A program made the position numbers and the translations under genes. 64,000 nt of DNA, taken from a virus. The DNA lies in IMG/VR virus record IMGVR_UViG_3300005613_000045, positions 1 through 64,000 of that record. One strand, given 5' to 3'. The stretch's first letter is position 1, and each line of letters starts with the position of its first letter. A model generated the notes under the pieces. The model did not search any database. It saw only the letters and a program-made list of their open reading frames with translations, and was not told the DNA's origin. Positions 6,483 to 47,700 of this stretch are shown one piece after another.

Positions 6483-6554
6483 GCTGGTATAACTTAATGG
6501 TAAAGTAACCACCTTGTAAGTGGTGGAGTGTAGGTTCAAGTCCTACTACCAGCT
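6483..6554 (+). tRNA. tRNA-Thr (anticodon UGU)
   Basis: Folded by hand: acceptor GCTGGTA/TACCAGC, D stem ACTT/AAGT, anticodon stem ACCAC/GTGGT with loop CTTGTAA, T arm GTAGG-TTCAAGT-CCTAC. No encoded CCA. Confidence 0.85.
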
Positions 6555-14958: not shown

Positions 14959-16944
14959 ATGCCCTACACAATTAAACCTGTAGACGGAAAATTCTGTATA
15001 TACAAAGAAGATCCTAATGGTCAACCTATGGGAGAACCTTTGCATTGTCATCCTTCGCAAGAAGCGGCAGTCGCACAGATTGCAGCAATTATGGCGAGTG
15101 AAAGATTTCCTCGTAAGAAGGATAAGAAAGATGTTCTGCTTCCAGCAGAGCGAGATCTGTTTGCCGAAATAGATAAATTACCTGCTGTTTCTGCTGAACC
15201 ACCTGTGGTCCCTTCAGTAGAACCTGTGGTTAAAGTTACAATTACTCCTGAGTATCAGCAAGAAATTACAGAGTTGTGTGGTGTCTTTGCTTCTAAGTTA
15301 GGTTATGAAGTAGCAGTGGTAGATAAAGAAGATCAATCTTTTCTTACCATTAATCTTCCTCATAATGGTTTATTGACTACACCAATTAAAAAGAGTGAAG
15401 ATACAGCTAAACTATTTCCTAATGTTCTATTGGAGACAAGCATTCCTGTTACAGAGATGGTAATAGATTACGAACCTGCAAAAAAGTATCTTACTAAAAT
15501 GGTTTCAGAATCTGTGATTAAGGTTACTGTTGATCCTTCAGAAGATACTCGACAAGATTCTGAAGAAGATGAAGAAGGTTCTGAGACTTGCAAGTGTACA
15601 GAATGTGGTTATGAAGCTCCTCATAAAGGCGGAGAACCTTGTGTAAATAAGTATTGTCCTGAATGCGGAGCCAAGATGATGAATGGTAAAGCAGAGGACG
15701 AGAAGGAAAAGGTTACTCCTGTGAAAGAAGAACCTGATGATGAGGTAGTTGAATTGGGCCATCGTAAAACTACTGCAGAAATGTTTGATTCTGTAATTAA
15801 CTTTGTGCGTCAAGTTGTAGGGTTTACTGTCGCTACGAAGAACCGTACTCTAGATAATGATTTGGATAAGATTCTTACTCTCATTAAAGAGATGAAAGAA
15901 ACTAAACCAGTCTTATTTACGGTGAAGAGCGGCGTTGATAAATATAGGTGGGTAGCTATCTCTTCTTCTAACTATCAAGATCGTGATGGAGAAATAGTAC
16001 CTACGAAAGCTTTGGAAAAAGATGTTTTAAATAATCCGACAGACAGAGGAAAACTACTCTTCTGGCACGAGCCTTCCCTAGAGTTAGGTGAGTGTGATTT
16101 TGCTGTTGTCTCTGATGGTTTTCTTGTGGAATCTGGTTACTGGTACAATAATAATCTTGGGGTGGCTGCTCGCAAAGCTGTAGAGCAACGTAGTAGCTAT
16201 TATGGTATGAGTATCGGATTTCAAGCATACGTTCCAGATATTGAAGAAAAACAAGTTGTAGGTGATAAAAATGTAAAATCAGTATATAATACAATTAGAA
16301 CTGTTGAACGTTCTTTGTTACCTGCAAAATGGGCATCTAATTTGTTTACAGCTATACAGACGAAAGGACACGAGATAATGGACCCGACAAAGTTGGCTGA
16401 GTTTGAAGGAATGGTTGGTAAGGAACTAGCTTCTGCTGTACTTGAAAAGATTACAAACAGCAAGAAAGAAGCTGAAGCTGTGGGTGTTGTTTCTAAAGAA
16501 GTGACTGTAGAAAATCCTTCTCCTTTGGAAGTTATGATCAAGTCTCTTGCCGAGGCTGGTTATACTGAGGAGGCCGAAGCTCTTAAAGCTTCAAAGCCTG
16601 CGAAGAAAATGACTCCCGAAGAAGAGGAAGCTGCTAAGGAAGAAGAAGATAAGAAGAAACTTCCTCCTCAGTTTGCTAAGAAAGAGCAAGCTACTCCTGA
16701 CGAGTCAGCAACTCTTGCTACACTTCTTTCTACTTTGATGGAACAGCAAGCTAATCTCACAAAAGAGATTGGTGAACTTAAAGCAAGCCAATCCACGCAG
16801 CAGGGTTTGGTACGCCCCTCACAGACTGTTGATACCGTTGTAAAAGAGGGCACTATCACACCTGTGGTAGAAAAGTCTGCTGGTGATATTGTTCTCGATA
16901 GTATGACTCAATCTATGCTTAATCGTCTTAATGGAGGTGCGTAA
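14959..16944 (+). CDS. Prohead protease (HK97-like S78) fused to a scaffold-like acidic coiled-coil region; contains a zinc ribbon
   Basis: Central WHEP and GMSIGF motifs, proposed by eye as catalytic His/Ser, compatible with an HK97-type S78 prohead protease. Zinc ribbon CKCTECG...CPECG. C-terminal Glu/Lys/Ala-rich region. Sits before the capsid gene. Confidence 0.5.
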   Translation: MPYTIKPVDGKFCIYKEDPNGQPMGEPLHCHPSQEAAVAQIAAIMASERFPRKKDKKDVLLPAERDLFAEIDKLPAVSAEPPVVPSVEPVVKVTITPEYQQEITELCGVFASKLGYEVAVVDKEDQSFLTINLPHNGLLTTPIKKSEDTAKLFPNVLLETSIPVTEMVIDYEPAKKYLTKMVSESVIKVTVDPSEDTRQDSEEDEEGSETCKCTECGYEAPHKGGEPCVNKYCPECGAKMMNGKAEDEKEKVTPVKEEPDDEVVELGHRKTTAEMFDSVINFVRQVVGFTVATKNRTLDNDLDKILTLIKEMKETKPVLFTVKSGVDKYRWVAISSSNYQDRDGEIVPTKALEKDVLNNPTDRGKLLFWHEPSLELGECDFAVVSDGFLVESGYWYNNNLGVAARKAVEQRSSYYGMSIGFQAYVPDIEEKQVVGDKNVKSVYNTIRTVERSLLPAKWASNLFTAIQTKGHEIMDPTKLAEFEGMVGKELASAVLEKITNSKKEAEAVGVVSKEVTVENPSPLEVMIKSLAEAGYTEEAEALKASKPAKKMTPEEEEAAKEEEDKKKLPPQFAKKEQATPDESATLATLLSTLMEQQANLTKEIGELKASQSTQQGLVRPSQTVDTVVKEGTITPVVEKSAGDIVLDSMTQSMLNRLNGGA

Positions 16945-18398
16945 TGGAATCTGAAGTTTTGCTGCAACTAGCTAAAGCTGTTCAGGCTTTAGCTGATTCG
17001 AGTAGCACAAGCAAGAAAAAGTCTTTGACTGGTGTTGCTGACGCTCAGTTGATCTTTGGCCCTGGTGGTTTCTTTAGTAATTTTGGTATTGACAACACTG
17101 TTGTTAATGCTAGTCTTACTCCACGAGGTATGGGCGATCTCATTCCTGCGATGGGTACTAATGTTCTCTATCCTGTATTCCCTTATCTTACAGGGTTTGA
17201 GGAAGATGGTTCGGCAGAGCCTGCTGGTCCGTGTGATGACGCCCCTGGTGGTGTCATTGAAACTTGTCACCAGACTGCGGCCTTTGGTCGTGTAGCTCGT
17301 GGCTCTAAGGAGATGGAAGTCAACGATCTGATGCAGATTCTTAACGGCCATCTGACCACAGATCTGCGTCTGATGGGTGATGTTATCAATCCTGGTCATC
17401 AGCTTATGCCTCAGCAAGGCGTGAATCAGAACGATATGCTGAAGCAGGTTGTTCAGACTCAGATGGTGATTATCGCTATCGCTTTCCAGCGCTGGTTGAC
17501 TCGTCGTTTGTGGACTGGTAATCCTACCAATAATAACGTTGGTGGTGGTTATGCTGAGTTCCCTGGTTTGGATATTCTTATCTCGACCAACAAAGTTGAC
17601 GCCTTTACTGGTGTAGCTTGTCCTGCTCTGTACTCAGATATTAAAGACTTTGCCTTTAATTCTGTGGATAGTGGTACTCCTGACATCCTAAATCATATCA
17701 GTATGATGGAATACTACTTGCGTCATATCGCAGAGCGCACTAACCTTATGCCTGTTGATTGGGTTATCGCTATGCGTCCTGAGTTGTTCTTTGAGCTTAC
17801 GGCTGTGTGGCCTTGCAAGTATCTTACCTATCGTTGTGCTGACGCTGCTGGTGCTGATGTTACTGTTATGAACGATGACACCAATGTGCGTATGCGTGAT
17901 GAGATGCGTAATGGTAACTTCTTGCTGGTTAATGGTCGTAAAATTCCTGTTATCACTGATGATGGTATTTACGAAGATAACAACGAGACTGATGGTCGTT
18001 TGCTCCCTGGTGAATATGCTTCAGACATCTACTTCATTCCTGTGAAGGCTAAGGGTATGCCTGTTCTTTACTGGGAATATTTGGATTACACTGAGGGTGT
18101 TTCACAGGCTAACGCTGTTACTCAAGGCAAGGGTCAGTTCTGGGCTACTGATGGTGGTCGCTACCTGTGGGCTATGCAGAACCAGAACTACTGCTTCAAG
18201 ATTCAGGCTAAGATTCAGCCTCGCGTGATTCTTAAGACTCCGCAATTGGCTGGTCGTATTCAGAATGTGAAGTACAGTCCGTTGCAGCATCTCCGTAGTC
18301 CTTTCGAGGATTCGCCCTACTTTATGAAGGGTGGTAATGAGGAGTACACGAATAGTATTGCTACCCTCTACAGTGATTGGAATCTTCCTGTCACCTAG
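16944..18398 (+). CDS. Major capsid protein (positional; HK97-fold presumed)
   Basis: 484 aa directly after the protease/scaffold; strong GGAGGTG RBS. Codon usage is distinct, rich in CGT/CTG/GGT and suggesting high expression. A strong hairpin lies downstream. Confidence 0.6.
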   Translation: MESEVLLQLAKAVQALADSSSTSKKKSLTGVADAQLIFGPGGFFSNFGIDNTVVNASLTPRGMGDLIPAMGTNVLYPVFPYLTGFEEDGSAEPAGPCDDAPGGVIETCHQTAAFGRVARGSKEMEVNDLMQILNGHLTTDLRLMGDVINPGHQLMPQQGVNQNDMLKQVVQTQMVIIAIAFQRWLTRRLWTGNPTNNNVGGGYAEFPGLDILISTNKVDAFTGVACPALYSDIKDFAFNSVDSGTPDILNHISMMEYYLRHIAERTNLMPVDWVIAMRPELFFELTAVWPCKYLTYRCADAAGADVTVMNDDTNVRMRDEMRNGNFLLVNGRKIPVITDDGIYEDNNETDGRLLPGEYASDIYFIPVKAKGMPVLYWEYLDYTEGVSQANAVTQGKGQFWATDGGRYLWAMQNQNYCFKIQAKIQPRVILKTPQLAGRIQNVKYSPLQHLRSPFEDSPYFMKGGNEEYTNSIATLYSDWNLPVT

Positions 18399-18409
18399 AA
18401 AATAGCATA

Positions 18410-18441
18410 AAGAGTGTGCTCTCGAAAGAGAGCACACTCTT
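18410..18441 (+). terminator. Stem-loop terminator or RNA-stability hairpin after the capsid gene
   Basis: 14-bp perfect stem AAGAGTGTGCTCTC/GAGAGCACACTCTT with a GAAA tetraloop. The 3' tail is CTCAT..., not a strong U-tract. Confidence 0.55.
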
Positions 18442-18460
18442 CTCATAAAGGAGGGCATCT

Positions 18461-19159
18461 ATGATTTGGCCAGCGATCACTGTGATGATCATTACTTATA
18501 AACGTCCAACTGAAATTAGAAAAACAATTTCAGCACTCAAAGAAAAAATAAAATATCCTGGTAAAATTTTTTGGCATATCGCTGATGACGAGTCTGGAGA
18601 AAATTATATTCCAGATATTAAAAAAGATTTTCCAGAACTAAAAATTTCTGGTACGACTTGTCATCGAGGCGGATGGGGAAAAAATTTTAATACTGCTTTT
18701 CGTGAAGTTGCTACAGAATATATCTTTGTTTGTGAAGATGATTATGTGGCTATTCGTGAGATTGATCTGCAGACAGGTATTCTATTGATGAAGGAATTAC
18801 CTACTACGGGATTAATTCGTTATGATGGAATAGAGGGACACAAACTAAATTTGTTCCTTCGCTCTGTTAAAAGTGAAGAAACTTCAGAAACTATCCAGTT
18901 TGCTTTTATTGATAGGGATAGTCCTGATCTATATATTTATAGCAATCGTCCGCATTTAGTAAGTAAAGCTTTTCACAACAAGTATGGTTTATATCCTGAA
19001 GGTATATCTTTAGGAATAACTGAAGAAGCTTTTGCACATATCATTAAAGATAGAGTAGAAGATGAAATGGATCTAGCTATATTATCCACAGGAATTCCTA
19101 GAGCTTTCGATCATATAGGGCACAGCTATCAGCTTACAACTGAAGACATTTCAAAATAG
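18461..19159 (+). CDS. GT-A fold (GT2-like) glycosyltransferase
   Basis: N-terminal VMIITYKRP plus downstream acidic IADDE/CEDD motifs fit a GT2-type nucleotide-sugar-binding domain. Confidence 0.5.
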   Translation: MIWPAITVMIITYKRPTEIRKTISALKEKIKYPGKIFWHIADDESGENYIPDIKKDFPELKISGTTCHRGGWGKNFNTAFREVATEYIFVCEDDYVAIREIDLQTGILLMKELPTTGLIRYDGIEGHKLNLFLRSVKSEETSETIQFAFIDRDSPDLYIYSNRPHLVSKAFHNKYGLYPEGISLGITEEAFAHIIKDRVEDEMDLAILSTGIPRAFDHIGHSYQLTTEDISK

Positions 19160-19169
19160 GAGGAACACT

Positions 19170-19718
19170 GTGGATTATTCAGAACATCTTAGCAATACTT
19201 TTGGTTTTATTTCTTTAGAAGAATTAGAACTTTTAAAAAAGTTTATTTCGCAAAGCGATTCTAAAGCTGTTGTATTAGACTTGGGAACAGGTTCAGGTAC
19301 TACTCTGACAGCCGTACTAGAAGAAAGCCCACAAGCAAAAATTACAACTGTCGATAACAAACCTTCTTCTGCAGAAGGGCGTATGCACGAAGCAGGATTC
19401 TCTTGTGAGAATGTTTCTTTTGTTGTTGAAGATTCTCTTAAAGCTGCAGAATTTTGGGATACCCCTGTGGACTTTATTATTTTTGACCTTGATGTTCCTG
19501 ATAATACTTTAGAGGATCATATTAGGGCATGGGCTGCTCATCTTAAAGTTGGTGCATATTTTGCAATGCACGATTATGGTGAAAAATTTTCTTCTTGGGA
19601 AAACAAGAAAAATATTCTAGACAAATTTGCTCGTTATAATGGATTAAAATTGCAAGAACAGGTAGGATGTTTGGCTATCTTTAAAAAATATTCTACAAAA
19701 CGAGGACGTAAAAAGTAA
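19170..19718 (+). CDS. Class I SAM-dependent methyltransferase
   Basis: Motif I VVLDLGTGSGTT; GTG start with TAGGAGG RBS. Confidence 0.7.
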   Translation: MDYSEHLSNTFGFISLEELELLKKFISQSDSKAVVLDLGTGSGTTLTAVLEESPQAKITTVDNKPSSAEGRMHEAGFSCENVSFVVEDSLKAAEFWDTPVDFIIFDLDVPDNTLEDHIRAWAAHLKVGAYFAMHDYGEKFSSWENKKNILDKFARYNGLKLQEQVGCLAIFKKYSTKRGRKK

Positions 19719-20305
19719 TGTGCAACAGCTGGTGTATAGATTTTGTTAAAGCGTCTATGGAATATTGGCCAAAGCATCCTGATATTCTTGAAGTAGGTAG
19801 CCTCAATGTGAATGGGTCTCCTCGTGATGTGTGCCAAGGAAAATATAAGTCATACACAGGAGTAGATATTACTCCTGGATTCTGTGTCGATCAGGTTGTA
19901 TCTGTAGAAGATCTTCCTAATACTGACATTAAAAAAGCTGATGTTGTAATCTCTACAGAGATGCTAGAGCATGTACATGATTGGAAGATTGCTTTGTTCA
20001 ATCTTCTTTTTATGCTTAAAGACAATGGTGTTCTTGTACTTACAACTCGTAGTCCTGGGTTTGAATATCATCCTTACCCTGAAGATAATTGGCGTTTTGT
20101 GGTTAAAGATTTTGAACACTTGTTTGATAACTCTATCTTTCCCACATCTTTTAAACTTGTTCACGCTGAACCAGACCCAGATCTTCGCAACGGTGTTAGT
20201 TGTGGTGTAGGAATTATTGTTCAGAAAATTGGCTATGATTTAAAAATTATTCAAGAGCGGATTAATTCGTTCGACGCTTATAACATGCACACTCATAGAG
20301 GTTAA
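19718..20305 (+). CDS. Class I SAM-dependent methyltransferase (Methyltransf_11-like)
   Basis: ILEVGSLNVNG and ISTEMLEHVHDW motifs. Confidence 0.6.
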   Translation: MCNSWCIDFVKASMEYWPKHPDILEVGSLNVNGSPRDVCQGKYKSYTGVDITPGFCVDQVVSVEDLPNTDIKKADVVISTEMLEHVHDWKIALFNLLFMLKDNGVLVLTTRSPGFEYHPYPEDNWRFVVKDFEHLFDNSIFPTSFKLVHAEPDPDLRNGVSCGVGIIVQKIGYDLKIIQERINSFDAYNMHTHRG

Positions 20306-20312
20306 GAATATC

Positions 20313-20822
20313 ATGGATAACTACAAATTCGCTAAGGGTTGGCTTACTGCTGACGAACGTGAAACACTAAAACATTATGCAGAACTTGCTCAAACAGAGT
20401 CTAATCGTCCTCTTATTATTAATATTGGTGTAGAGTATGGTGCTTCACTGCACTGTTTTCGTGCGGGTTCTTTGCTCGCAGATATTGTTGGGGTCGATCT
20501 TGATGTTTCAAAACTTGATGGTGATCCACGAGCGGAGCTAATTGCAGGGGATTCGACAGACAAGAATACAGCAGATCAAGCAGGTGAAGCTTGTGATATT
20601 CTGTTTGTAGATGGTGGTCATGCTGCTGGAAATGTTACAGACGACATCCGCTTGTGGTCTCCTAAAGTAATTAAAGGTGGGATTATGCTGTTCCACGATT
20701 ATTCTCCTTTGGATATGCACAGTGGTGTTGTGCAGGCTGTGGATACGTGGTATTCTAAAAATAAAAAGAATTGGGAATTCATTGAACAAGTAGATACAAT
20801 ACGAGTTTATCTTAGGAAGTAA
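20313..20822 (+). CDS. Putative class I SAM-dependent methyltransferase (O-MTase/Methyltransf_24-like)
   Basis: LIINIGVEYGASL, ILFVDGGHA and LFHDY arrangement. Confidence 0.5.
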   Translation: MDNYKFAKGWLTADERETLKHYAELAQTESNRPLIINIGVEYGASLHCFRAGSLLADIVGVDLDVSKLDGDPRAELIAGDSTDKNTADQAGEACDILFVDGGHAAGNVTDDIRLWSPKVIKGGIMLFHDYSPLDMHSGVVQAVDTWYSKNKKNWEFIEQVDTIRVYLRK

Positions 20823-20850
20823 TCTAGTTCTCCTTTAAGGAGCTTCTAAC

Positions 20851-21747
20851 ATGACACGAAAAGTTAATGTTGGTCCTGCGGAACCTGTATATCTTACAAA
20901 CGCTAGTGATATTTCTATCAATACTGGAGACATCACGCTTGGTGATGTTGGCGTTACCAGCATTGGTAATGGTGTTGATGTCGCTCAGGGTGCCACAACA
21001 GACGCTGCTGCTAGTTCTTCGGTTGCAGAAGATACCACAGCACGAACTGGAATTGGACTGTGGAAGGGTATTAAAAATATCCTGATTCTGATCAATGCTA
21101 AATTTGGTTCGCTTGGTCAGAAAACAATGGCAGGTAGCGCCCCTGTGGTATTGGCTTCTGATCAGAGTGCGCTTGCTGTAGATGCCACAGGTCAAGGTGA
21201 TGTTCCTGTTACGCTTGATGGGGAAGAGGTTGTACTTGGTGCTGGCACTGCAGCAATTGGTAAACTTGCAGCCAATAGCGGTGTAGATATTGGTGATGTG
21301 GATGTAGCGAGTATTGCTGCAGGTGATAATAATATTGGTAACGTAGATCTTGCCAGTGCTATTCCATCAGGTACAAATCTTATTGGTAAAACGAGTGTTG
21401 GTCAAGATACTTCTACAATTTACAACGGCACTACAGCACTTACACCAAAGTTTGCTGCGATTAATGTGGCTTCAAGTGGTGATAATACAATTGTTGCAGC
21501 GGTTGTCGATAAAAAGATTCGTGTTTTGCAAGTTCTTTTAACCGCAGGAGCGGCTGTAAACGTGCGTTTTGAGGATGGTGCTGGTGGTACTGCATTGACA
21601 GGTATTATGGAAGTAGCTGCTAATGGTGGTTTTGTGCTTCCTTTTAGCCCTGTGGGTTGGTTTGAAACAGGTACGAATACTATTTTGAATCTTGAACTTA
21701 GTGCTGCTCAAAATGTTGATGGCATTATTGTTTACGTGGAGGTTTAA
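20851..21747 (+). CDS. Gly/Ala/Thr/Val-rich beta-type protein, a candidate virion surface or decoration protein
   Basis: 298 aa of low-complexity G/A/T/S/V/D-rich sequence. The strong RBS AAGGAG is embedded in a CTCCTTTAAGGAG palindrome. Confidence 0.5.
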   Translation: MTRKVNVGPAEPVYLTNASDISINTGDITLGDVGVTSIGNGVDVAQGATTDAAASSSVAEDTTARTGIGLWKGIKNILILINAKFGSLGQKTMAGSAPVVLASDQSALAVDATGQGDVPVTLDGEEVVLGAGTAAIGKLAANSGVDIGDVDVASIAAGDNNIGNVDLASAIPSGTNLIGKTSVGQDTSTIYNGTTALTPKFAAINVASSGDNTIVAAVVDKKIRVLQVLLTAGAAVNVRFEDGAGGTALTGIMEVAANGGFVLPFSPVGWFETGTNTILNLELSAAQNVDGIIVYVEV

Positions 21748-21749
21748 TA

Positions 21750-22298
21750 ATGAAAATTGTTAAAGTAAAAATTCGTCGCGGAGATCGTAGTAAGGGTGAA
21801 GATATGATGGTTTACCCTGCTGGATATAATGCTGAAGAGGTAGATAGTTATGGTTTCGGGCCTTCCGTACTCAATGGTACAGGTGGATACTCAGGCGGGA
21901 TTGGGCGGGGTTTTGCTGAGGAATCTTGTTTGATTGTTTTAGAAGACGAGGTAGCGGATCGCTATGCTCAAGATCCTGATATGGAAATTATTGATGAAGC
22001 TGCTGCAGATTCCCTTTCCGAGCAATGGCGTATAGCTAAACACGAAACAGAGATTGTAATTCGGGAGCCAGAAACTGTTCGCTATTTGCAAGATAAAAAA
22101 GCAAAAGGTGCAGAGCGTGTAGCGGATGGTAAGGGAGTTATTTCAGAATACACTCTTACTGCTGAAGAGTTAAAGATTCTTGATCCTGACGACCCGACAC
22201 CTGGGATCAATAAACGTCTTCGTCCTTATAAAATGGTTATTGAAGAAATGGGTCATACTCTAACTGCTAAAACTGGTGGACAAGCAAAAGGAGCGTAA
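21750..22298 (+). CDS. Hypothetical protein
   Basis: 182-aa ORF. Confidence 0.5.
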   Translation: MKIVKVKIRRGDRSKGEDMMVYPAGYNAEEVDSYGFGPSVLNGTGGYSGGIGRGFAEESCLIVLEDEVADRYAQDPDMEIIDEAAADSLSEQWRIAKHETEIVIREPETVRYLQDKKAKGAERVADGKGVISEYTLTAEELKILDPDDPTPGINKRLRPYKMVIEEMGHTLTAKTGGQAKGA

Positions 22299-22300
22299 AT

Positions 22301-22864
22301 ATGGCTCTTAAAGTTTATATAGCTTGCCCGAATAAAGGTAGTATAGATGCTCACACCGTGCTATGGCTGAGTCATGCCATAGCACAGCTTTCTAATAGTC
22401 TTGTGGTAGATTGTTTGCCTAGTCCTTATCCACTTCAGCAAGTAAGAAGTATGCAGCGCGAGAGGTTTTTAAAGAGTGATTGTACTCATATGTTCTTGCT
22501 GGATAGTGGTAAAGTTCCACAAGATCATACGATTCAGAAATTGCTTGAGCATGATAAAGATATTGTCGCAGCTCCACATCCTACTCGTATTGGATATGAG
22601 GTTGGACCAATGGTACTTGATCGTGTAGGTTCTGAGTATATGCAACATTATCCCTGGAAGGGTATGCAAGGACCGAATGTTGTAGTAGGATGTGGTGGTA
22701 TGCTCATTAAGAGAGAAGTTCTAGAGAAAGTTGGTCCTTTCTTTTGTCGCTATGATGATGCTGGATATGTTATTAAAACAGAAGATTTTGATTATTGTGA
22801 TCGTGCTCATAAATTAGGTTTTGAAGTCTGGGCAGATTTTAATCTAATACAGGAGCATTTTTAA
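22301..22864 (+). CDS. Putative GT-A fold glycosyltransferase
   Basis: C-terminal GCGGMLIKREV...TEDFDYCDRAHKLGFEV resembles the GT2 EDxDxxxRxxxxG region. Confidence 0.45.
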   Translation: MALKVYIACPNKGSIDAHTVLWLSHAIAQLSNSLVVDCLPSPYPLQQVRSMQRERFLKSDCTHMFLLDSGKVPQDHTIQKLLEHDKDIVAAPHPTRIGYEVGPMVLDRVGSEYMQHYPWKGMQGPNVVVGCGGMLIKREVLEKVGPFFCRYDDAGYVIKTEDFDYCDRAHKLGFEVWADFNLIQEHF

Positions 22865-23529
22865 TGACTTATAATGTTATAGGTTCTATTTTTCAAGACG
22901 ATAAAATATATAAATATGATGGATTTAGTTCTACTATTTTAACTTCTATTGCTACACCTGCAGAAGATTGTTATGATATTGGGCAACGTAATGATAATGT
23001 TTTATCTATTGATTATGTAACAGATAAGGTTTATGAGCTTGATGGTTTTACAACAACAATATTAAATAGTGTTGCTACAACAGAATTAACCAACACAGGT
23101 GTTACTTGGGATGGCTCAAATCTTATTGAAATGAATGTACAAACGGCTCGTTGCACAAAAGCTTCAGGTTTTTCTAATACTATTTCTGCTAGTTTTACTG
23201 CTCCTGTTACAAATCATTATGCAGTTGGCTGGGATGGAACTAATGCCCTTTCAACAAAAGCTGCAGGCGCTCCTCCTATTGTTTATCAATATACAGGATT
23301 CACAAGCTCTATTAAATCACAATTTAACGCCGCTGATTCTACTGTTCGGGGCATTGATATGGATGGAACAAATGTGCTAGTAGGTGTTAGTGGTAAAGTT
23401 GAAAAGCATGTAGGATTTACTTCTACTATTTCAAACTGTTTTAGTACAGGAGCAAACACAGCTTATATTATATGGTCTGATTTAGGTGCAGCAATTATAG
23501 CTAGAATGCTTTTAGGTGTTGGTGTTTAA
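22864..23529 (+). CDS. Protein built of about five ~43-aa internal repeats (GF[ST]x[ST]I ... DG[ST]N)
   Basis: Repeats are directly visible, e.g. YKYDGFSSTILTSIAT, YELDGFTTTILNSVAT, YQYTGFTSSIKSQFNA and KHVGFTSTISNCFST. Confidence 0.55.
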   Translation: MTYNVIGSIFQDDKIYKYDGFSSTILTSIATPAEDCYDIGQRNDNVLSIDYVTDKVYELDGFTTTILNSVATTELTNTGVTWDGSNLIEMNVQTARCTKASGFSNTISASFTAPVTNHYAVGWDGTNALSTKAAGAPPIVYQYTGFTSSIKSQFNAADSTVRGIDMDGTNVLVGVSGKVEKHVGFTSTISNCFSTGANTAYIIWSDLGAAIIARMLLGVGV

Positions 23530-23549
23530 TTTTCAATGAGGGCCAATCA

Positions 23550-25907
23550 ATGAAACTATTCCTTAATCCTCCTGCAAAGAAAAAAGAAAAGCTAGGTAGT
23601 GGTGTCGATGTTGTAGTTTATCAAATGACTAAACATCTACAAGAAATAGCTAATGTATTTCTTGTCCCTACTGTGGATGAAGCAGATATTTTTGCTACAC
23701 ATATTTCTGCTGAAGGATCTCGTCCTGCAGATGTTCTTCATTGTCATGGTCTCTATCCTACACAGGATAGAGAATCTGATAAATGGATGTGGAAAATTAA
23801 CCAGCTTGTTATCGAGTCTGCTAAGAAAGCTGTGTTGGTTACAGTTCCTTCTCCTTGGGTAGCTGAAATTTTTCAACGAGATATGGGATTCACACCAGAA
23901 ATTATTCCTCATGGTTTAGATTTAGCAGAGTGGAAACCTAGAACTCTAGGGCAAACACCTACTATTTTGTGGAATAAGAATAGAAATTCTGATGTCTGTA
24001 ATCCTGATCCTGTTAATGAGATCGCTGCTATAGCTAAGGATCTTTCTTTTGTATCTACCTTTGGTAAAGCTACACCTAACGTGAAAATTGTAGGCTCTAT
24101 GCCTCATCCACAAATGAAAGAGCTTTTATACCAAAGTGGGATTTATCTCGCTACAACAAAAGAAACTTTTGGTATAGGTATTCTTGAAGCTTTGATTTGT
24201 GGACTACCTGTGCTGGCTTGGAATTATGGTAATGCTCCTTACCTCGTACAGCATAAAGTCACAGGATATATTGCACAGCCTGGAGACTACCAAGATTCTG
24301 TTGCAGGCTTGCATTATATCACAGAGAATTGGGAAGAACTTTCCAAGAATGCTCAAGCTTACGCTAAAAGATTTTCTTGGAAAGAGGTTGCACTCCAATA
24401 TTTGCGTGTGTATGAAAAAGCCCTAGAAATTAAAGAAGAAGAAAAAGTAGGGCGTGTCAGCTTTGTTATGCCTTGTCATAATTATGGACAATGGGTAGGA
24501 GAAGCTATCCATTCTGTGCGTAATCAAACACGAGCAAACATTGAATGTATTGTTATTGATGATGGGTCCACAGATAACTCCTATGAAAAAGCTCTCGAAG
24601 CTGCAGGAGATGACCCACGAATTCGTGTGATTAAGCAAGAGAATCAAGGTGTAGCAGCTACAAGAAATCGTGGAGCAATGCTTGCTAAAGGTCCCTTCCT
24701 TTCTTTTTTGGATGCTGATGATAGACTGAGACCAGAATTTGTAGAGCGTCTTTTACCTGAACTTCAGGCAGATCGTTCTCTCGGTATCTCTTATGGTAAA
24801 CTAGCCATCATGGATAAGGATGGTAATACTACAGGACAAGCAAGAGATTGGCCAGAAGATTACTCCGCAGATAAGCAACTACAAAAGCAGAATAGAATTC
24901 CTGCTTGTTGTCTTATGCGCAAAGAAATCTTTTTACGCACAGGTGGGTTCAGACAGCATACAGCACCAACAGAAGACGCCGAACTGTGGGCACGCTTTGC
25001 ACTTATCGGATATAGAGGAAAGCTTTCTACAATTAAACCTGTGTATGATTACAGGTTGCATGGTAATAGTGCTTCTACAAGTTTGCAAGGTAAACCTGCG
25101 CCTGATTGGACAAGCTGGTTGGCTGCAGCTAATGGTGGAAAGGTTCCCTTCGCTGCAGAAGTTTCCAAAAAAGAAGCCTCACACCCTGTGTTAGATTATG
25201 ATCAACCTTTTATTTCTTTTATTATTCCTGTGGGTCCTGATCATGTTAAACATCTGCAGAGAGCTTTGGAATCAGTTGCTGGGCAGACATTACCTACATG
25301 GGAAGCTGTGGTTATTGATGATACAGATGAAGGTGATCTTAAAAAGCAAGGAAGTATTCCTTACGAGATTGCTTATCCTTGGGTAAGATGGGTAAGAAAT
25401 ACAAAGCTGCATAATGTGAGCGCTGCAAGAAACCAGGGGGCGGCTGTAGCTAGAGGAAAGTATCTTTGCTGCTTGGACGCTGACGATTATATCTATCGTG
25501 ACTTCATGGCAGGTATGAAGAACGTCTTGGACTATTGCGAAGGCGATGCACGTATTGTATACTCTGATTGGGTATCAATGCCTAATGGAGAAGTACATAA
25601 AGCGGAAAACTGGAACATTCAAAGACTTAAAGATCACGCTCTTTTCGCAGTTACTTTTGCAGTTCCTCGTTCAGCTTATTTTCAAGTGGGTGGTTTTGAT
25701 GAATCACTCGATCTCTGGGAAGATTGGGATTTTACAATCAAGCTTGCTCTTGCGGGATATGTAGGTATTCGTGTACCGAAACCTTTGTTTGCTTATTGTT
25801 ATGATACAGGAGAGCGGCGAGAGCAGAGCCTAGAAAATAAAGATAGATTGTTTAAAGCAATTCGAGGAGAATACGAAGCAGTTATTCCTGCAGCAAGGCG
25901 TGGTTGA
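23550..25907 (+). CDS. Three-domain glycosyltransferase: GT4/GT1-like (E-x7-E) plus two GT2 domains
   Basis: ETFGIGILEAL is the GT4 EX7E motif. First GT2 domain: VSFVMPCHNYGQW...VIDDGSTDNS...FLDADD. Second GT2 domain: ISFIIPVGPDH...VVIDDTDEG...CLDADD. 785 aa in total. Confidence 0.75.
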   Translation: MKLFLNPPAKKKEKLGSGVDVVVYQMTKHLQEIANVFLVPTVDEADIFATHISAEGSRPADVLHCHGLYPTQDRESDKWMWKINQLVIESAKKAVLVTVPSPWVAEIFQRDMGFTPEIIPHGLDLAEWKPRTLGQTPTILWNKNRNSDVCNPDPVNEIAAIAKDLSFVSTFGKATPNVKIVGSMPHPQMKELLYQSGIYLATTKETFGIGILEALICGLPVLAWNYGNAPYLVQHKVTGYIAQPGDYQDSVAGLHYITENWEELSKNAQAYAKRFSWKEVALQYLRVYEKALEIKEEEKVGRVSFVMPCHNYGQWVGEAIHSVRNQTRANIECIVIDDGSTDNSYEKALEAAGDDPRIRVIKQENQGVAATRNRGAMLAKGPFLSFLDADDRLRPEFVERLLPELQADRSLGISYGKLAIMDKDGNTTGQARDWPEDYSADKQLQKQNRIPACCLMRKEIFLRTGGFRQHTAPTEDAELWARFALIGYRGKLSTIKPVYDYRLHGNSASTSLQGKPAPDWTSWLAAANGGKVPFAAEVSKKEASHPVLDYDQPFISFIIPVGPDHVKHLQRALESVAGQTLPTWEAVVIDDTDEGDLKKQGSIPYEIAYPWVRWVRNTKLHNVSAARNQGAAVARGKYLCCLDADDYIYRDFMAGMKNVLDYCEGDARIVYSDWVSMPNGEVHKAENWNIQRLKDHALFAVTFAVPRSAYFQVGGFDESLDLWEDWDFTIKLALAGYVGIRVPKPLFAYCYDTGERREQSLENKDRLFKAIRGEYEAVIPAARRG

Positions 25908-25928: not shown

Positions 25929-26198
25929 GTGAGCAGCGCTCCTCAGAAAGTTGTTCCTGCAACTTATGACAGCATCAGCCCCCCTGTGATTGCTGCTAAA
26001 GCTTCTGTAGAACGACGCTATGACATGGTTAAAATTCGTTATACTAGAAACATTTTAGGCATGAGGATTTTTCCTCTTCCTTCAAAACATAAATATCGCT
26101 TTGATGCTAGTCCTAGTAACAGAGAAAAAATTGTTCCAAGATATGATGCTGATGAATTGATGTCACGTTATCCTAATACCTTTGAGATTATAGAGTAG
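25929..26198 (+). CDS. Hypothetical protein
   Basis: 89-aa ORF. Confidence 0.45.
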   Translation: MSSAPQKVVPATYDSISPPVIAAKASVERRYDMVKIRYTRNILGMRIFPLPSKHKYRFDASPSNREKIVPRYDADELMSRYPNTFEIIE

Positions 26199-26205
26199 GT
26201 GCAGC

Positions 26206-27369
26206 ATGGCCAGAAGTGATTTTGAAACCTTACTTCCGCTAGATAGTTATGCAAGAATTATTGGTGTAGATCCAAGACATTTTAATCAAGTGTATTGTGA
26301 ATCTTTTCCTGATCGACGAGGAGAAGATCTAGTATGGTTTCAAGATCACTGGCCACAACCAGGAAGAGCTAGTCGAGATGATGTAGCTATTGCTATTGCA
26401 GAAGCAGAAGAACTTATTGCAGAAGTCTTAGGTTTCTATGTTGCTCCAAAATACACAGTCAATGAATCACACATATTTCCTGGATTAGTTTTTAAACCTT
26501 TAAGTTATAATCGAATTCATGTGGGTTTAGAGCATTTAAAGTATATTGCTGGTGGATGTAGAACAGTTGACTCTATCGAAGAGGGAGTAGATATTTCTTC
26601 TTCGTATGTTGATCTAGATGGTGATGGATGGGATGAACAAATTCTTTTCACTGTCACACACGCAGACGCAGCTTCTTGGCAAGCAGAAGAGATAGGTATT
26701 TTTCCTCCAGGAAGTGATACGGATATAACTAATCAGATTAGAGGATTGCGAATCTCTATCAGCGGGACAACTATTACAGTGCGAGGTCAATCAGCACAGT
26801 TTGTTATCCCCGAACTGTGGAATTCTTATCAAGGAATTAATGGTGATGATCCTACAGTCTTCTTACAGACTGTGGATGTACATAGGATTTATACAGCATC
26901 CTCAGAAGATTGCCCTCCTGTGAAGTTTGTTTATAGAGATGATTCTGTATATCCTCCACAAGCTTTTACTTACGGTATTCTAGAAGAAGTAATGCCAGAC
27001 AGAGGATTAGTAGAAACTATTCCTGCTACTTGGGATGGTACAACATGGACAATTAGCGCTGTTTCGTGTAGTATATTAAAAAAGCCAGAACGTATTATGT
27101 TAAATTATCTGAGTGGGCATCCTTTGCTAAGAGGAGAGGTTCACCCCAAACTCTCCCGCGCAATTGCTGCTTTAGCTACGGCTCGTCTAACTTCTCCTAT
27201 CACAGGAGGAGGTGAATCTGTTAATAAGATTTACTACGAATGGCAACGTCCAGCCATCGAAGCAAACTATGCTCAAAATGTATGCCCATTCGGAGATCGT
27301 CATGGGGCATGGATTGCTTGGCAGATCGTACATACAATGTTTGGTTCTTCAAATAGTTTTTCGCTTTAG
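26206..27369 (+). CDS. Hypothetical virion structural protein
   Basis: 387-aa ORF in the late block. Confidence 0.55.
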   Translation: MARSDFETLLPLDSYARIIGVDPRHFNQVYCESFPDRRGEDLVWFQDHWPQPGRASRDDVAIAIAEAEELIAEVLGFYVAPKYTVNESHIFPGLVFKPLSYNRIHVGLEHLKYIAGGCRTVDSIEEGVDISSSYVDLDGDGWDEQILFTVTHADAASWQAEEIGIFPPGSDTDITNQIRGLRISISGTTITVRGQSAQFVIPELWNSYQGINGDDPTVFLQTVDVHRIYTASSEDCPPVKFVYRDDSVYPPQAFTYGILEEVMPDRGLVETIPATWDGTTWTISAVSCSILKKPERIMLNYLSGHPLLRGEVHPKLSRAIAALATARLTSPITGGGESVNKIYYEWQRPAIEANYAQNVCPFGDRHGAWIAWQIVHTMFGSSNSFSL

Positions 27370-44412: not shown

Positions 44413-44496
44413 TGAGGTGGGAGGGATTTGAACCCTCATGGCGTTTCCGCCAGCGGCTTTTAAGGCCGCCATGTCTACCAATTCCATCACCACCCC
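44413..44496 (-). tRNA. tRNA-Leu (anticodon UAA), type II with a long variable arm
   Basis: Reverse complement folds as acceptor GGGGTGG/CCACCTC (one G-U pair), anticodon stem GCGGC/GCCGC with loop CTTAAAA, 15-nt variable arm, and T arm GAGGG-TTCAAAT-CCCTC. Confidence 0.85.
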
Positions 44497-44780: not shown

Positions 44781-47700
44781 TTAATCCTCTTCTACAATAA
44801 GAGAACCCCAACGATAACCACGTTCTGCTTCTACAGGAAAAGGAATCGTATCACCATAAAGTTCTGCCGCTGTGCCTTCCATACACTTGCTAAGTTCGTG
44901 TACTGCGTCCTCTGCATCTTCTTCAGGAACACAGGCTGTGATACTATCATGGACTGTCATGCGCACTGAGAGACCTAGTTTATCTAAGGCGATGATAGAC
45001 GCAAGTGTAGCATCACTAGCAGAGCTTTGGGGAATCATATTGATTGCCTGTCTGAAAATTTCTGATACTCGATAGCGATCATTCTTTACATAAACAAGCT
45101 CAGGAAATCTTCTCTTTCTACCAAGCAGAGATTCAACATACCCTTGTTCGAGTACAAGCTGCTTTACTTTCTCGTTATATTCTACCACCTTGGGCATTTT
45201 TGAAAAGAAAGCTGAAGCAATCTTGTGGACAATTTCAGGATCTACACCATGTGTACCGTCACGCTGTAGTTTATCCTCAGATGCTCCATAAAGCAAAGCA
45301 AAGTTAAAAGTTTTTGCAGAAGAGCGATTGGCTTTTGTATAGTCATCTCCCCAACCATCTCGTGCAGTTTCTCCGTGCAAGTCTCGTCCTTCTCGATAGC
45401 AATTAATCAGATAAGGATCTTGAGATAGTAGAGCAATTGTTCTATATTCGATTTGACTATTACAAGTAAATACACCGCAACTTAAAGCAAAATTATGTTG
45501 ATCATCTACAGTAATAGCTCGCATAGGTTGTAGACCCACAGGTTGAATATCTATAATTACATGATTTTTACCGCCCCTTCGTGCTGTGTCATAACATTCT
45601 CTAGAACAATATTTTTTAGTATTTCCTTTTGTAACATAACACTCTTTACCACAGATGGGACAAACTACGAAAGTTCCAGAACGTTTTCCGTAATTAGGAT
45701 TATTTTTTCCAACATACGAACGACGATTTTTAATTCCTTCTCTAAGATTGTTTAATCTTAATGTGTGATCTTGTTCAGCGTAATTTTGTTTACCGTGTTC
45801 AGACCAGTGTTTTTTAGCATTCACATATGTAAGATTATCTGGCAGATTATTTTGTCTATTTCCGTCTTTATGGTGTACATGCGTATTTTTATTACGTTTT
45901 CCAAACAAAGTTTCAGCTACAAGTATATGTTCTTTTATATAATCAGTTGCATGAGTAGTATATAAATGAACATAACCATTACGAGGATTAACGTACCTAT
46001 TAAAAGGAAGAAGACGATCTCCTATGGTCAGATTTTCTGTTGTTCGTTCTTCGATAGGATGATAGCGCCGACCTTTTCCTGTTTTTATTAACCACTTGTG
46101 ATCTTTAGAAGCAATAATAGATTCTCCATTATCTAACGTTATACGAAAACTCTCTAGCATTCCTACATTTACTTCTTTTGTTACCAAACCTGCGCACACT
46201 TTATGATCATCTACAGAATAAACACGCTCTCCAACATGAATATCTTTTAAAGGTTTGGCTCCTTCAAAAGTTTCTACAAGTGTTTCTGGATGAAGACAAA
46301 AATCGGCCTCTACAAAGACAGATCCTAAATCAGCAATAAACAAATTACGAATATCTGTTTTTGCCTCTTTATTCCTGCTAGGCTGGTTTTGTAGATTTGG
46401 CGTTGAGGATGACAGCCTTCCTGTGACTGTACCCGCAAGGTTAAAGCTTGTGTGTACTCTACCATCAGCAAGCATAGAGTTTTGTAGTCCTGTGACGTAT
46501 CGAGATGAGATAGTATAAGCTTCTCGATAATCCAGTAACATACGCACAAACTCGTGCTGATTTTCTAGCATAGATAGAACAGTCTTTGCATTTGTAGAAC
46601 GTCCATCTATCTCAGGCAAACCTAACTCATCAAAAAGAATATGCGATACTTGTTGTGGTGATCGTGGGTTAAATTCATGACCACAACATTGTTCCATTTG
46701 TTTATAAGCATCAAGAGCTTTTGATTCATACTTTGGAATAAGCGTTTGAAGAAGTTGCTGATCTAATAAAATACCCTTCGCTTCAGCATTAGAAAGCGCC
46801 AACACTCCAGGCATAAGAAGATTCTTATATATCCAAACCAACTTCTCTTGTGGTTTAAGCATCTTGTGCAGTTCCCACGTCATTACTCGCTGCCAATAAC
46901 CGTCATTTGCTGTATAAGTATGTAGCATTTGTGTAGGCATAGCAGAGTAATCAACATCTTTTCCTGTAAAAAACTCTTTCACAGGAGTATCCCAATCAGG
47001 AGCGCGAAACATAGCAGCACAAATTTCTTTAGCTCCATGCGTACCTTGTCGCTCATCAAGCAAGTAATGAGCAAGAAGCGTATCATACTTGAAATCAAGC
47101 GTAACACCCAATTGCAGACGAATAAAGTTGCGATCAAACTTTACGTTATGCCCAGACCAAGCTACTTGTGGACTTGCTTTTTTCAAAGCTTCTGCAAAAC
47201 CCTGTGAATAGATCACATGTTCTGGAATGAGATAAACTAACTCATCTTCACTTGGAGCCATTACAAGCAGAATAATTTTACCTGATACAGGATCAAGAGA
47301 ATTTGTTTCAATATCCAGAACACAGAAAGAATTTTGTTGTGCCTTACGCAATACCATATCATAATCTTCTGTGAGCACATACTTAACTTCTTCAGGATTC
47401 GGAGGACGCACATCAAAAATATCTGGATTCAGAATAGCATGTACATATTTTAGATCAGCCGTAATATCTGCAAGCAAACGATTGTTTTTCATAACAGCGC
47501 CTGGATGCACAGTAGGAATAACCTCTACTCGATAACTATCTCCATCTTTTACAGGGATGTCGATAGTTTTTCTGATGCCTCTGCGCTTAGTGATTCCAGG
47601 ACCCTTACCCAGCAGATTTTTTGTAGCCAGATTACCTAGCGTAAGCACAAGCTTTGGTTTAAGGGAAGCAATTTCATCCAGCAATCTGTCTTTACATAAT

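Follow-up and report, generated by a model that had tools for sequence, protein, structure and literature searches.

The concept that phages encode enzymes for glycosylating their own virions, with methylation as a part of the modification, is already established. In the literature that we found, experimental demonstrations of virion glycosylation by tailed-phage enzymes come only from mycobacteriophages, where the modification is discussed in terms of antibody recognition. An O-methyltransferase and three glycosyltransferases (GTs) modify the proteins of the capsid and the tail tube in the cluster O mycobacteriophages, according to PMC11600133 (citing Freeman 2023), and PMC12619734 places mycobacteriophage glycans at the C-terminal ends of the capsid and tail-tube subunits alike. 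Here we describe a locus with related contents from an uncultured virus, namely positions 18461-25907 of a stretch of 64,000 nucleotides (positions 1 to 64,000 of the IMG/VR record IMGVR_UViG_3300005613_000045; hereinafter the window). We propose, with a probability of roughly 60%, that this island is a late-expressed cytoplasmic glycosylation system directed at the particle of the phage itself.

The described cassettes offer several points of comparison with this locus. In the mycobacteriophage Corndog, the genes gp35-38 are situated between that for the portal (gp34) and those for the protease (gp39) and capsid (gp41), with gp35 coding for a TylF/Methyltransf_24 methyltransferase (MT), gp37 for a GT2-like protein, and gp38 for a GT25 protein. 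Like the mycobacteriophage cassettes of the Corndog type and the Che8-type GTs, the window island combines phage-encoded soluble GTs with an MT of the Methyltransf_24/TylF type within the head module. Unlike in Corndog, however, one fusion protein with three domains forms the core, the MTs number three instead of one, and the slot lies 3' of the putative gene for the major capsid protein (MCP); moreover, across the relatives of the window this slot is occupied by an O-antigen-like hypervariable cassette with nucleotide-sugar genes. In a further departure from the mycobacteriophages, an actinobacterial host is not indicated for the window phage. BLASTP uncovered no sequence relationship between Corndog gp35 and the Methyltransf_24 protein of the window (E 0.81). 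A tblastn search of 50,697 deposited phage records with the three-domain GT recovered none with at least 80% coverage, and mycobacteriophages are absent both from the organism groups and from the 25 best records listed.

Another parallel is provided by the chlorovirus PBCV-1, in which A111/114R, a protein with three GT domains found in all chloroviruses, and A064R, which displays a GT-GT-methyltransferase architecture, build a glycan that is borne by the major capsid protein and capped by a sugar O-methyltransferase (PMC7826918). The presence of three GT domains in one soluble, lineage-conserved polypeptide recalls A111/114R, although the likeness is best seen as an architectural analogy: PBCV-1, a giant virus of eukaryotes, has an MCP of the double-jelly-roll type and glycans that are N-linked, and its MT is fused to GTs, whereas those in the window are the products of separate genes. 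The Megavirinae possess clade-specific clusters of glycosylation genes for their capsid fibrils (PMC10117803), and, as in the relatives of the window, these clusters of nucleotide-sugar pathway and GT genes differ between related viruses; they serve in decorating virion appendages. In contrast, the Megavirinae are giant viruses that infect amoebae, their clusters comprise 6-33 genes, and no sugar-nucleotide genes occur in the window itself. A further comparison is with those bacterial O-antigen and capsule loci that have multidomain polymerizing GTs and methyl chain terminators of the WbdA/WbdD type. They share with our locus the GT4, GT2, and class-I MT families and a content that varies around conserved flanks, but an initiating transferase, an ABC transporter, Wzx/Wzy, and a ligase are all lacking from the window, and its island is flanked by virion genes. 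Hence, we regard the mycobacteriophage and chlorovirus systems as likely analogs of the island rather than homologs.

The island consists of nine open reading frames (ORFs), all on the plus strand, which are separated by gaps of -1 to 62 nt, with an ATGA overlap at two junctions and a Shine-Dalgarno-like sequence at most starts (Table 1; genes are named below by their start positions). It can be divided into three parts: sub-module A (18461-20822), coding for a GT2 and three class-I S-adenosylmethionine (SAM)-dependent MTs; sub-module B (20851-23529), with four genes for a decoration/fiber-like jelly-roll protein, a protein without a family match, a weakly recognized small GT-A-like protein, and a five-bladed propeller; and part C (23550-25907), coding for a GT4+GT2+GT2 fusion. 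Upstream are the genes for TerL (PF03237; phrog_2, E 1e-26), a 456-aa portal-sized ORF, a 242-aa ORF, a 661-aa ORF, and the putative MCP. Downstream are ORFs of 89, 387, and 492 aa (the last with weak BNR/Sortilin matches), followed by a chaperone-sized ORF, the tape-measure protein, and Dit, with the latter two being recognized by PHROG profiles. The gene order of the island region recurs in dozens of independent metagenomic contigs; hence, the arrangement is not a matter of chance.

The initial annotation of this DNA had described a co-oriented, tightly packed set of genes between the major capsid and tail genes, and the ORFs indeed have the coordinates, common strand, and close spacing that it gave; its placement of the island holds on the tail side, whereas the capsid assignment follows from position, with no profile match. 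The count of seven enzymes, four of them GTs, has to be amended: there are six enzyme ORFs, comprising three for GTs with five GT domains between them and three for MTs, and ORF 21750 had been left out of the list. The enzyme families that it named were recovered in profile searches and none of the ORFs turned out to belong to an unrelated family. The three GT domains of the 785-aa protein (PF00534 and two stretches of PF00535) and the three MTs, each with a glycine-rich motif I, score above the Pfam gathering thresholds. For 22301, the GT-A likeness was retrieved, but weakly, with the Pfam score remaining below gathering.

Table 1. Coordinates of the island genes, their flanks, and other features of the window discussed in the text
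Feature	Coordinates	Strand	Length	Family or basis of assignment
Putative major capsid protein; candidate glycan acceptor	16944..18398	+	484 aa	Synteny: after TerL, portal-sized ORF, and 661-aa ORF
Perfect stem-loop between MCP stop and first island gene	18410..18442	+	14-bp stem	Folding
GT2 (GT-A) glycosyltransferase	18461..19159	+	232 aa	PF00535 (Glycos_transf_2), E 2e-9
Class-I SAM methyltransferase	19170..19718	+	182 aa	Methyltransf_31/24/25, E 4e-9
Class-I SAM methyltransferase	19718..20305	+	195 aa	Methyltransf_23/11; PF13489, E 7e-10; phrog_32762, E 8e-18
Class-I SAM methyltransferase	20313..20822	+	169 aa	Methyltransf_24, PF13578, E 1.6e-12
Probable virion decoration/fiber-like protein	20851..21747	+	298 aa	Lineage-specific N-terminus, IGxVDV repeats, C-terminal jelly-roll
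Unknown protein	21750..22298	+	182 aa	No family match
Probable small GT-A-like glycosyltransferase	22301..22864	+	187 aa	Weak call
Five-bladed beta-propeller protein	22864..23529	+	221 aa	Five repeats; 22% Ser+Thr
Core GT4+GT2+GT2 fusion	23550..25907	+	785 aa	GT4 ~1-295, GT2 ~300-510, GT2 ~555-770
Small conserved protein	25929..26198	+	89 aa	Directly 3' of triple GT; homologs in L002, L003, L011, L013, L101; no family match
Conserved protein, neck/head-completion by position; 3' island boundary	26206..27369	+	387 aa	Synteny
Putative major tail protein; second candidate acceptor	27378..28856	+	492 aa	Before chaperone-like ORF and tape-measure protein
Probable protease/scaffold fusion	14959..16944		661 aa	
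Family A DNA polymerase	44781..47999	-	1071 aa	
tRNA-Thr (TGT)	6483..6554	+		
tRNA-Leu (TAA)	44413..44496	-		

The core of the island is the three-domain GT. Its N-terminal domain matches the Pfam model Glycos_transf_1 (PF00534) over residues 176-274 (E 3.5e-18; 66 bits against a cut-off of 26.4), and two further stretches match Glycos_transf_2 (PF00535; E 5e-52, 176.5 bits); the best hit in the PDB is a chondroitin synthase (E 1.5e-29). The protein displays an EX7E motif (E205-x7-E213), DAD motifs at 388-390 and 643-645, and ED motifs at 475-476 and 724-725. The EX7E, DxD, and ED motifs show at least 95% conservation across 39 aligned homologs, with identities down to ~30%. As the motifs of every domain are thus maintained, all three activities are under selection. 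Many of the homologs (those of L006, L008, L018, L027, L032, L043, L068, L087, and others) are 850-1040 aa long and possess a region additional to those of the window protein.

Seven long relatives of the window were fetched first, via MCP homologs, after which an MCP profile was used to collect 80 loci from IMG/VR; a search of IMG/VR with the single MCP sequence had given no match, and neither a DNA search nor an MCP-protein search of INPHARED yielded a similar phage. Synteny was counted in the 52 non-redundant relatives, their MCPs being 36-78% identical, for which 8 kb or more of sequence follows the MCP gene. A full-length three-domain GT is encoded downstream of the MCP on the same strand in 42 of these, and it is situated between the MCP and the homolog of the 387-aa protein 26206 in 27 of the 28 that have the latter downstream. 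The distance between these two flanking genes ranges from 1.0 to 9.3 kb among the relatives. Eight of the ten loci without a GT match still carry homologs of epimerases, DegT, GT2, or MTs in the fetched 10 kb, so that their islands probably run off the flank. One relative, L019, is truly devoid of an island, implying that the system is dispensable for assembly.

Between these conserved anchors the content of the slot is highly variable. For 44 relatives, Pfam analysis of the 241 ORFs that separate the core GT from the MCP identified NAD-dependent epimerase/dehydratases (33 ORFs), Polysacc_synt_2 (24), GT2 (17), Methyltransf_24 (13), DegT aminotransferases (12), Methyltransf_23 (8), GHMP kinases (7), sulfotransferases (Sulfotransfer_1; 6), and cytidylyltransferase-like proteins (3), along with one case each of UDP-glucose dehydrogenase, RMNT_CmcI, and FkbM, and likewise of APS kinase, radical SAM, and hexapeptide transferase domains. 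Judging from these families, the slot has the gene complement of a glycan biosynthesis locus with O-antigen-like variability. The numbers for Methyltransf_24 and Methyltransf_23, together with the TylF/Methyltransf_24 protein of the cluster O cassette, also indicate that the earlier view of three MTs in such a locus as unusual was overstated. The window island is itself a mosaic, sharing sub-module A with L002, sub-module B with L101, and the triple GT with all. In the cassettes of distant relatives (L059, L061, L063, L067, L068, L072, L089, and others), 8 of 120 ORFs contain cREC_REC (cyclic-phosphate processing receiver) domains and 7 of 120 are GHMP kinases. Along with the sulfotransferases and the APS kinase, these hint at phosphorylated or sulfated virion glycans. 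Also in the slot are five N6/N4 DNA methylases and one C5 DNA methylase, together with LAGLIDADG/intein elements and an IS605 OrfB/Cas12f-like TNB gene; thus, it acts as a general insertion hot spot as well.

Sub-module A, the GT2 with the three MTs, is common to the window and L002. The GT2 protein 18461 scores 38 bits against PF00535 (gathering cut-off 23.3), contains an EDD motif, and has homologs with 43-51% identity immediately 3' of the MCP in L002, L004, and L006. Of the MTs, 19170 gives Pfam scores of 36.8, 37.3, and 32.3 bits and has VLDLGTGSG as its motif I, with a homolog of 41% identity in L002; 19718 (39.4 bits, motif I EVGS) is 59% identical to its L002 counterpart; and 20313 (48.6 bits, motif I NIGVEYG) has homologs of 50-55% identity in L002, L004, and L101. 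There is also a distant similarity between 20313 and the L002 homolog of 19170 (29% identity, E 5e-7). In L101, whose island has no GT2+MT sub-module, a Methyltransf_24 gene (1-419) whose product is 55% identical to 20313 stands several kb upstream of the terminase, which shows that an MT of this kind can be encoded away from the island. Searches of the PDB with the MTs retrieved no sugar MT, and the NCBIfam matches were all sub-threshold; their assignment as sugar O-methyltransferases, which gene context suggests, may hold.

Sub-module B (20851, 21750, 22301, and 22864) is shared as a block with L101, the island of which lacks sub-module A. Its first protein, 20851, has more than 2400 homologs, in which a highly conserved C-terminal domain of ~110 aa stands behind variable N-terminal parts rich in IGxVDV repeats. 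The first 55 aa are shared, at 60% identity, with a 108-aa ORF occupying the same slot in L002, a pattern that would be expected of a lineage-specific anchor bearing an exchangeable distal domain. An AlphaFold2 (AF2) model predicts the C-terminal ~100 residues to be a beta-sandwich (pLDDT >90), with the long repeat region being of low confidence. Foldseek searches of the PDB with this model recovered the cement protein of phage KHP40, which is trimeric, as the top hit (7dou_4, E 2.5e-4), followed by chains of the cyanophage Pam1 capsid and the HFTV1 turret, and BFVD matches include entries named 'virion structural protein'. Thus, in both its predicted C-terminal beta-sandwich fold and the location of its gene in the head module, 20851 resembles the KHP40 cement (7dou), Pam1 (7eel), and HFTV1 turret (8qpg) proteins (E 2.5e-4 to 4e-3), although the scores are low (TM ~0.5 on the target, 13-17% identity) and 20851 differs in its additional long repeat region. 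A homolog lies between the MCP and adaptor genes in the unrelated SU10-like podophage L009, and another directly 3' of the MCP in L101. Taken together, 20851 looks like a virion decoration or fiber-like protein.

The product of 21750 has 67 representative homologs of 95-185 aa, including one with 60% identity at the same position in L101; Pfam, PHROG, and NCBIfam profile searches retrieved no family match for it. For 22301, the match to Glyco_tranf_2_3 (E 0.0025, 18.3 bits) falls short of the gathering cut-off of 27; further weak matches are to phrog_1574 (E 1.6e-8), to the GT family phrog_2456 (E 0.006), and to an NCBIfam rhamnosyltransferase (E 2.5e-4). Its motif EDFDYCDRAHKLG resembles the ED...R....G motif retained in the GT2 domains of 23550, although a BLASTP comparison with the GT2 domain of 23550 was not significant; its L101 homolog is 61% identical. 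The initial description of 22864 as a five-repeat protein is corroborated by the GF and W residues that are invariant across the five repeats and by an all-beta AF2 model with five blades (pLDDT 89.3, pTM 0.86). Its Foldseek neighbors are generic WD40/YVTN propellers (to E ~1e-8) with no lectin-specific match among them, and a tachylectin-like lectin function, although considered, is not claimed on this account. The few homologs of 22864 are located in structural regions of other phages, with one in L101. The neighborhood of the protein P0241 features a beta-helix protein and a portal, and the idea that its C-terminal extension is a head-tail adaptor received no support from Pfam and was dropped. 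Both 20851 and 22864, from their predicted folds, look like structural modules rather than pathway enzymes.

The flanks of the island contain the two candidate acceptors. We putatively identify 16944 as the MCP from its position, its more than 1142 homologs, and its G+C content at third codon positions (GC3), which at 0.427 is the highest in the operon; most neighboring genes range over 0.13-0.28. The gene for the putative major tail (tail-tube) protein, 27378, is second with 0.331. The latter protein is 18% Ser+Thr, and its C-terminal region shows weak BNR/Asp-box, PSII_BNR, and Sortilin-Vps10-like matches, which suggests a beta-propeller displayed along the tail; the protein is retained in L002-L004, L007, and L101. 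The 387-aa protein 26206 has no Pfam or PHROG family match, and neither the 661-aa ORF nor the 492-aa tail protein matches a PDB sequence. Immediately after the MCP stop lies a perfect stem-loop. Such GC-rich perfect stems directly follow the MCP stop in most of the relatives inspected (L002-L043), with the position being conserved and the sequence not; the median minimum free energy of the 90 nt after the MCP stop is -31.9 kcal/mol versus -24.8 kcal/mol in coding controls. This element is probably an attenuator, or else acts on mRNA stability, and would thereby determine how strongly the MCP is expressed relative to the genes downstream. A promoter scan of the island found sites to be no more numerous than in shuffled sequences.

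Based on these observations, the virion-directed glycosylation system that we favor might operate thus. Readthrough of the hairpin that follows the highly expressed capsid gene would yield low levels of the enzymes relative to the capsid protein. The triple GT would then lay down a conserved short core from nucleoside-diphosphate sugars of the host. GT4 enzymes are by convention in CAZy retaining and GT2 enzymes inverting, so that one retaining and two inverting steps would be expected of it. The accessory GTs might add branch or terminal sugars, and the MTs O-methylate the sugars so added. Exposed parts of abundant virion proteins, namely the capsid protein and/or the major tail protein, would act as acceptors, perhaps joined in the window phage by the appendage proteins 20851 and 22864. 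As 22301 always travels with sub-module B, it might be a GT dedicated to that module. The outcome would be a coat of glycans with a chemistry that differs between related phages in a serotype-like fashion. Since the enzymes are soluble, produced late in infection, and have no route out of the cytoplasm, the glycan would most plausibly be O-methylated, built from host donors, and placed on virion proteins. In this regard, the island proteins contain no membrane-like segment: no 19-residue hydropathy window exceeds 1.8, and the maximum falls in the Rossmann core of the GT4 domain.

Several elements of this scheme had been anticipated by the initial annotation. The computational evidence agrees best with its notion of a phage-encoded pathway that would place a glycan, perhaps O-methylated, on virion proteins; this applies in particular to the synteny in 42 of 52 relatives, the slot content, and the soluble nature of the enzymes. 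Its supposition that sugar donors come from the host agrees with the Pfam scan of ~74 window ORFs, which detected no nucleotide-sugar enzyme. The surface polymer that it entertained as an alternative target is unlikely, with no gene for export, a flippase, or a polymerase.

New within the collections and literature searched are an independent, widespread, uncultured lineage with a conserved three-domain GT in one polypeptide, and an O-antigen-like hypervariable cassette of which the window phage has a variant that is rich in methylation, contains no donor genes, and bears an appendage module as an add-on. We also put forward, at slightly short of even odds in our estimation, a broader proposition: that there is a large, so far uncultured siphovirus-like lineage, represented by more than 1100 MCP homologs in metagenomes, with a conserved three-domain GT wired into the head module and a hypervariable amino-sugar/sulfate/methyl/kinase cassette, whereby related phages wear distinct glycan coats ('virion serotypes'), and that the window is a minimal host-donor variant with triple methylation and an add-on glycosylated appendage module. 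The locus and its more than 40 syntenic relatives suggest that virion glycosylation arose independently as a strategy, and that, in an environmental phage lineage of wide distribution and much richer sugar chemistry, it constitutes a core trait that diversifies. If this is correct, phage particle surfaces would be under strong diversifying selection in natural environments, independently of animal immune systems. It would raise the question of what selects for surface glycan diversity outside animals; the candidates are resistance to proteases or grazers, evasion of binding to decoys, and attachment to polysaccharide matrices. It would also affect how the capsid masses and surfaces of uncultured phages are interpreted, and make available a compact soluble three-domain GT and small MTs for the glycoengineering of protein particles.

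Other explanations of the island have to be considered alongside. The enzymes might instead hijack host polysaccharide synthesis, acting on O-antigen, teichoic acid, or exopolysaccharide (EPS) precursors at the inner membrane face and altering the cell surface, which could block superinfection or keep the progeny off debris. This accords with the best scores of the GT2 and GT4 domains, which are to enzymes for EPS, teichuronic acid, colanic acid, and chondroitin, and with the resemblance of the relatives' cassettes to O-antigen loci. However, genes for membrane proteins were not found in the window, nor were any for an initiating phosphoglycosyl transferase, a flippase, an ABC transporter, a polymerase, or a ligase; the top families in the slots of the relatives include no export component, and more than 40 phages have the system at one fixed place, which lies between the MCP gene and those for the neck; moreover, as the Pfam scan detected no integrase in the window, lysogenic conversion is not likely either. 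We therefore consider remodeling of the host envelope to be an unlikely function. It is comparably improbable that some or all of the MTs act independently of a glycan, methylating Lys, Arg, or Gln of virion proteins or another non-sugar substrate. The best NCBIfam match of 19170 is to a PrmC-type glutamine methyltransferase (E 1.8e-7), albeit far below the cut-off, and the PDB searches did not single out sugar MTs; methylation of a tail protein does matter in a mycobacteriophage, although by a host-encoded enzyme (PMC13445384). Yet 19170 also matches the NanM sugar O-MT at a sub-threshold level (E 1.1e-5), and the MTs travel as a block with a GT2, as seen in L002. Furthermore, of the MT families found in the relatives' glycan slots, Methyltransf_24 is the most frequent, occurring there beside RMNT_CmcI and FkbM types, and the O-MT of the known glycosylation cassette of Corndog likewise belongs to Methyltransf_24/TylF.

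Glycosylation of the phage DNA, as a base hypermodification evading restriction, deserves mention because DNA is a frequent target of phage GTs (Pyle 2024, cited by PMC12619734) and a few relatives have DNA methylase genes in the same slot. Nevertheless, no dCMP/dUMP hydroxymethylase, gene for hydroxymethylcytosine or hydroxymethyluracil (hmC/hmU), or other base-modifying enzyme emerged from the scan of the window, and the island genes belong to the head and not to the replication module. The amino-sugar, sulfate, and kinase chemistry of the relatives is also unlike that of the described DNA glycosylation systems, and we hold this explanation to be very improbable. Equally hard to credit is the notion that the interval is merely a recombination hot spot that collects unrelated morons with no common function. 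The mosaic content, the independent occurrence of sub-modules A and B, the DNA methylases, LAGLIDADG/intein elements, and IS605 OrfB in the slot, and the absence of an island from L019 might be so explained; against this, the triple GT persists, its catalytic motifs intact, in phages whose MCP identities span 36-78%, and most annotated ORFs in the slot pertain to a single theme, namely the synthesis and tailoring of glycans.

The interpretation of the island as a virion glycosylation system has its own points of weakness. The phage is uncultured and the glycosylation of its proteins is predicted from its genes; the identity of 16944 as the MCP follows from synteny, with no match among Pfam, PHROG, or PDB profiles; and in NCBIfam and the PDB the GT domains find their best neighbors among polysaccharide enzymes (for EPS, teichuronic acid, and chondroitin) with lipid- or glycan-linked acceptors. 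The PDB and NCBIfam profiles did not sort the MTs into those with sugar and those with protein substrates, and the slot in the relatives additionally collects unrelated morons such as DNA methylases, homing endonucleases, and IS605 OrfB. Finally, the C-termini of the tail and 26206-like proteins of the island-less L019 show no obvious difference from those of GT-bearing relatives, and recognition of the acceptor by this comparison was set aside.

The presence of M23 peptidase and Amidase_2 genes points to a bacterial host. An attempt to derive the host from metagenome-assembled genomes (MAGs) in GTDB was abandoned, as the eight matches were scattered over several taxa and were dismissed as binning noise. 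The names of these MAGs (L090-L097) refer to Altiarchaeales, Saccharibacteria (two), Paceibacterota, Methanothrix, Desulfuromonadales, Thiobacillus, and Starkeya, and several of the contigs are 55-58 kb long, approximately the size of a whole phage. The MAGs likely contain phage contamination in the form of binning artifacts; assignments to the candidate phyla radiation (CPR) do repeat among them.

Some of the other genes of the window and its relatives show peculiarities of their own. The 661-aa ORF upstream of the putative MCP, which is probably a protease/scaffold fusion, contains a zinc-ribbon-like CxxC...CxxC insert at residues ~202-256, with weak Zn_Tnp_IS91 and Zn_Ribbon matches; its central part (residues ~319-478) is retained among the relatives, and no profile recognizes the ORF. 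TerL, which is 504 aa in the window, is enlarged in two relatives, to 594 aa in L004 (4206-5990) and 800 aa in L101 (2393-4795), and the L004 copy displays a faint intein-splicing match. In addition to two tRNA genes, the window has a replication module with genes for SNF2, PolA with uracil-DNA glycosylase (UDG) and HNH domains, AAA_24, PD-(D/E)XK, and ThyX. The polymerase combines an N-terminal domain of the uracil-DNA-glycosylase superfamily with a 3'-5' exonuclease domain, and an HNH endonuclease is inserted ahead of its polymerase domain.

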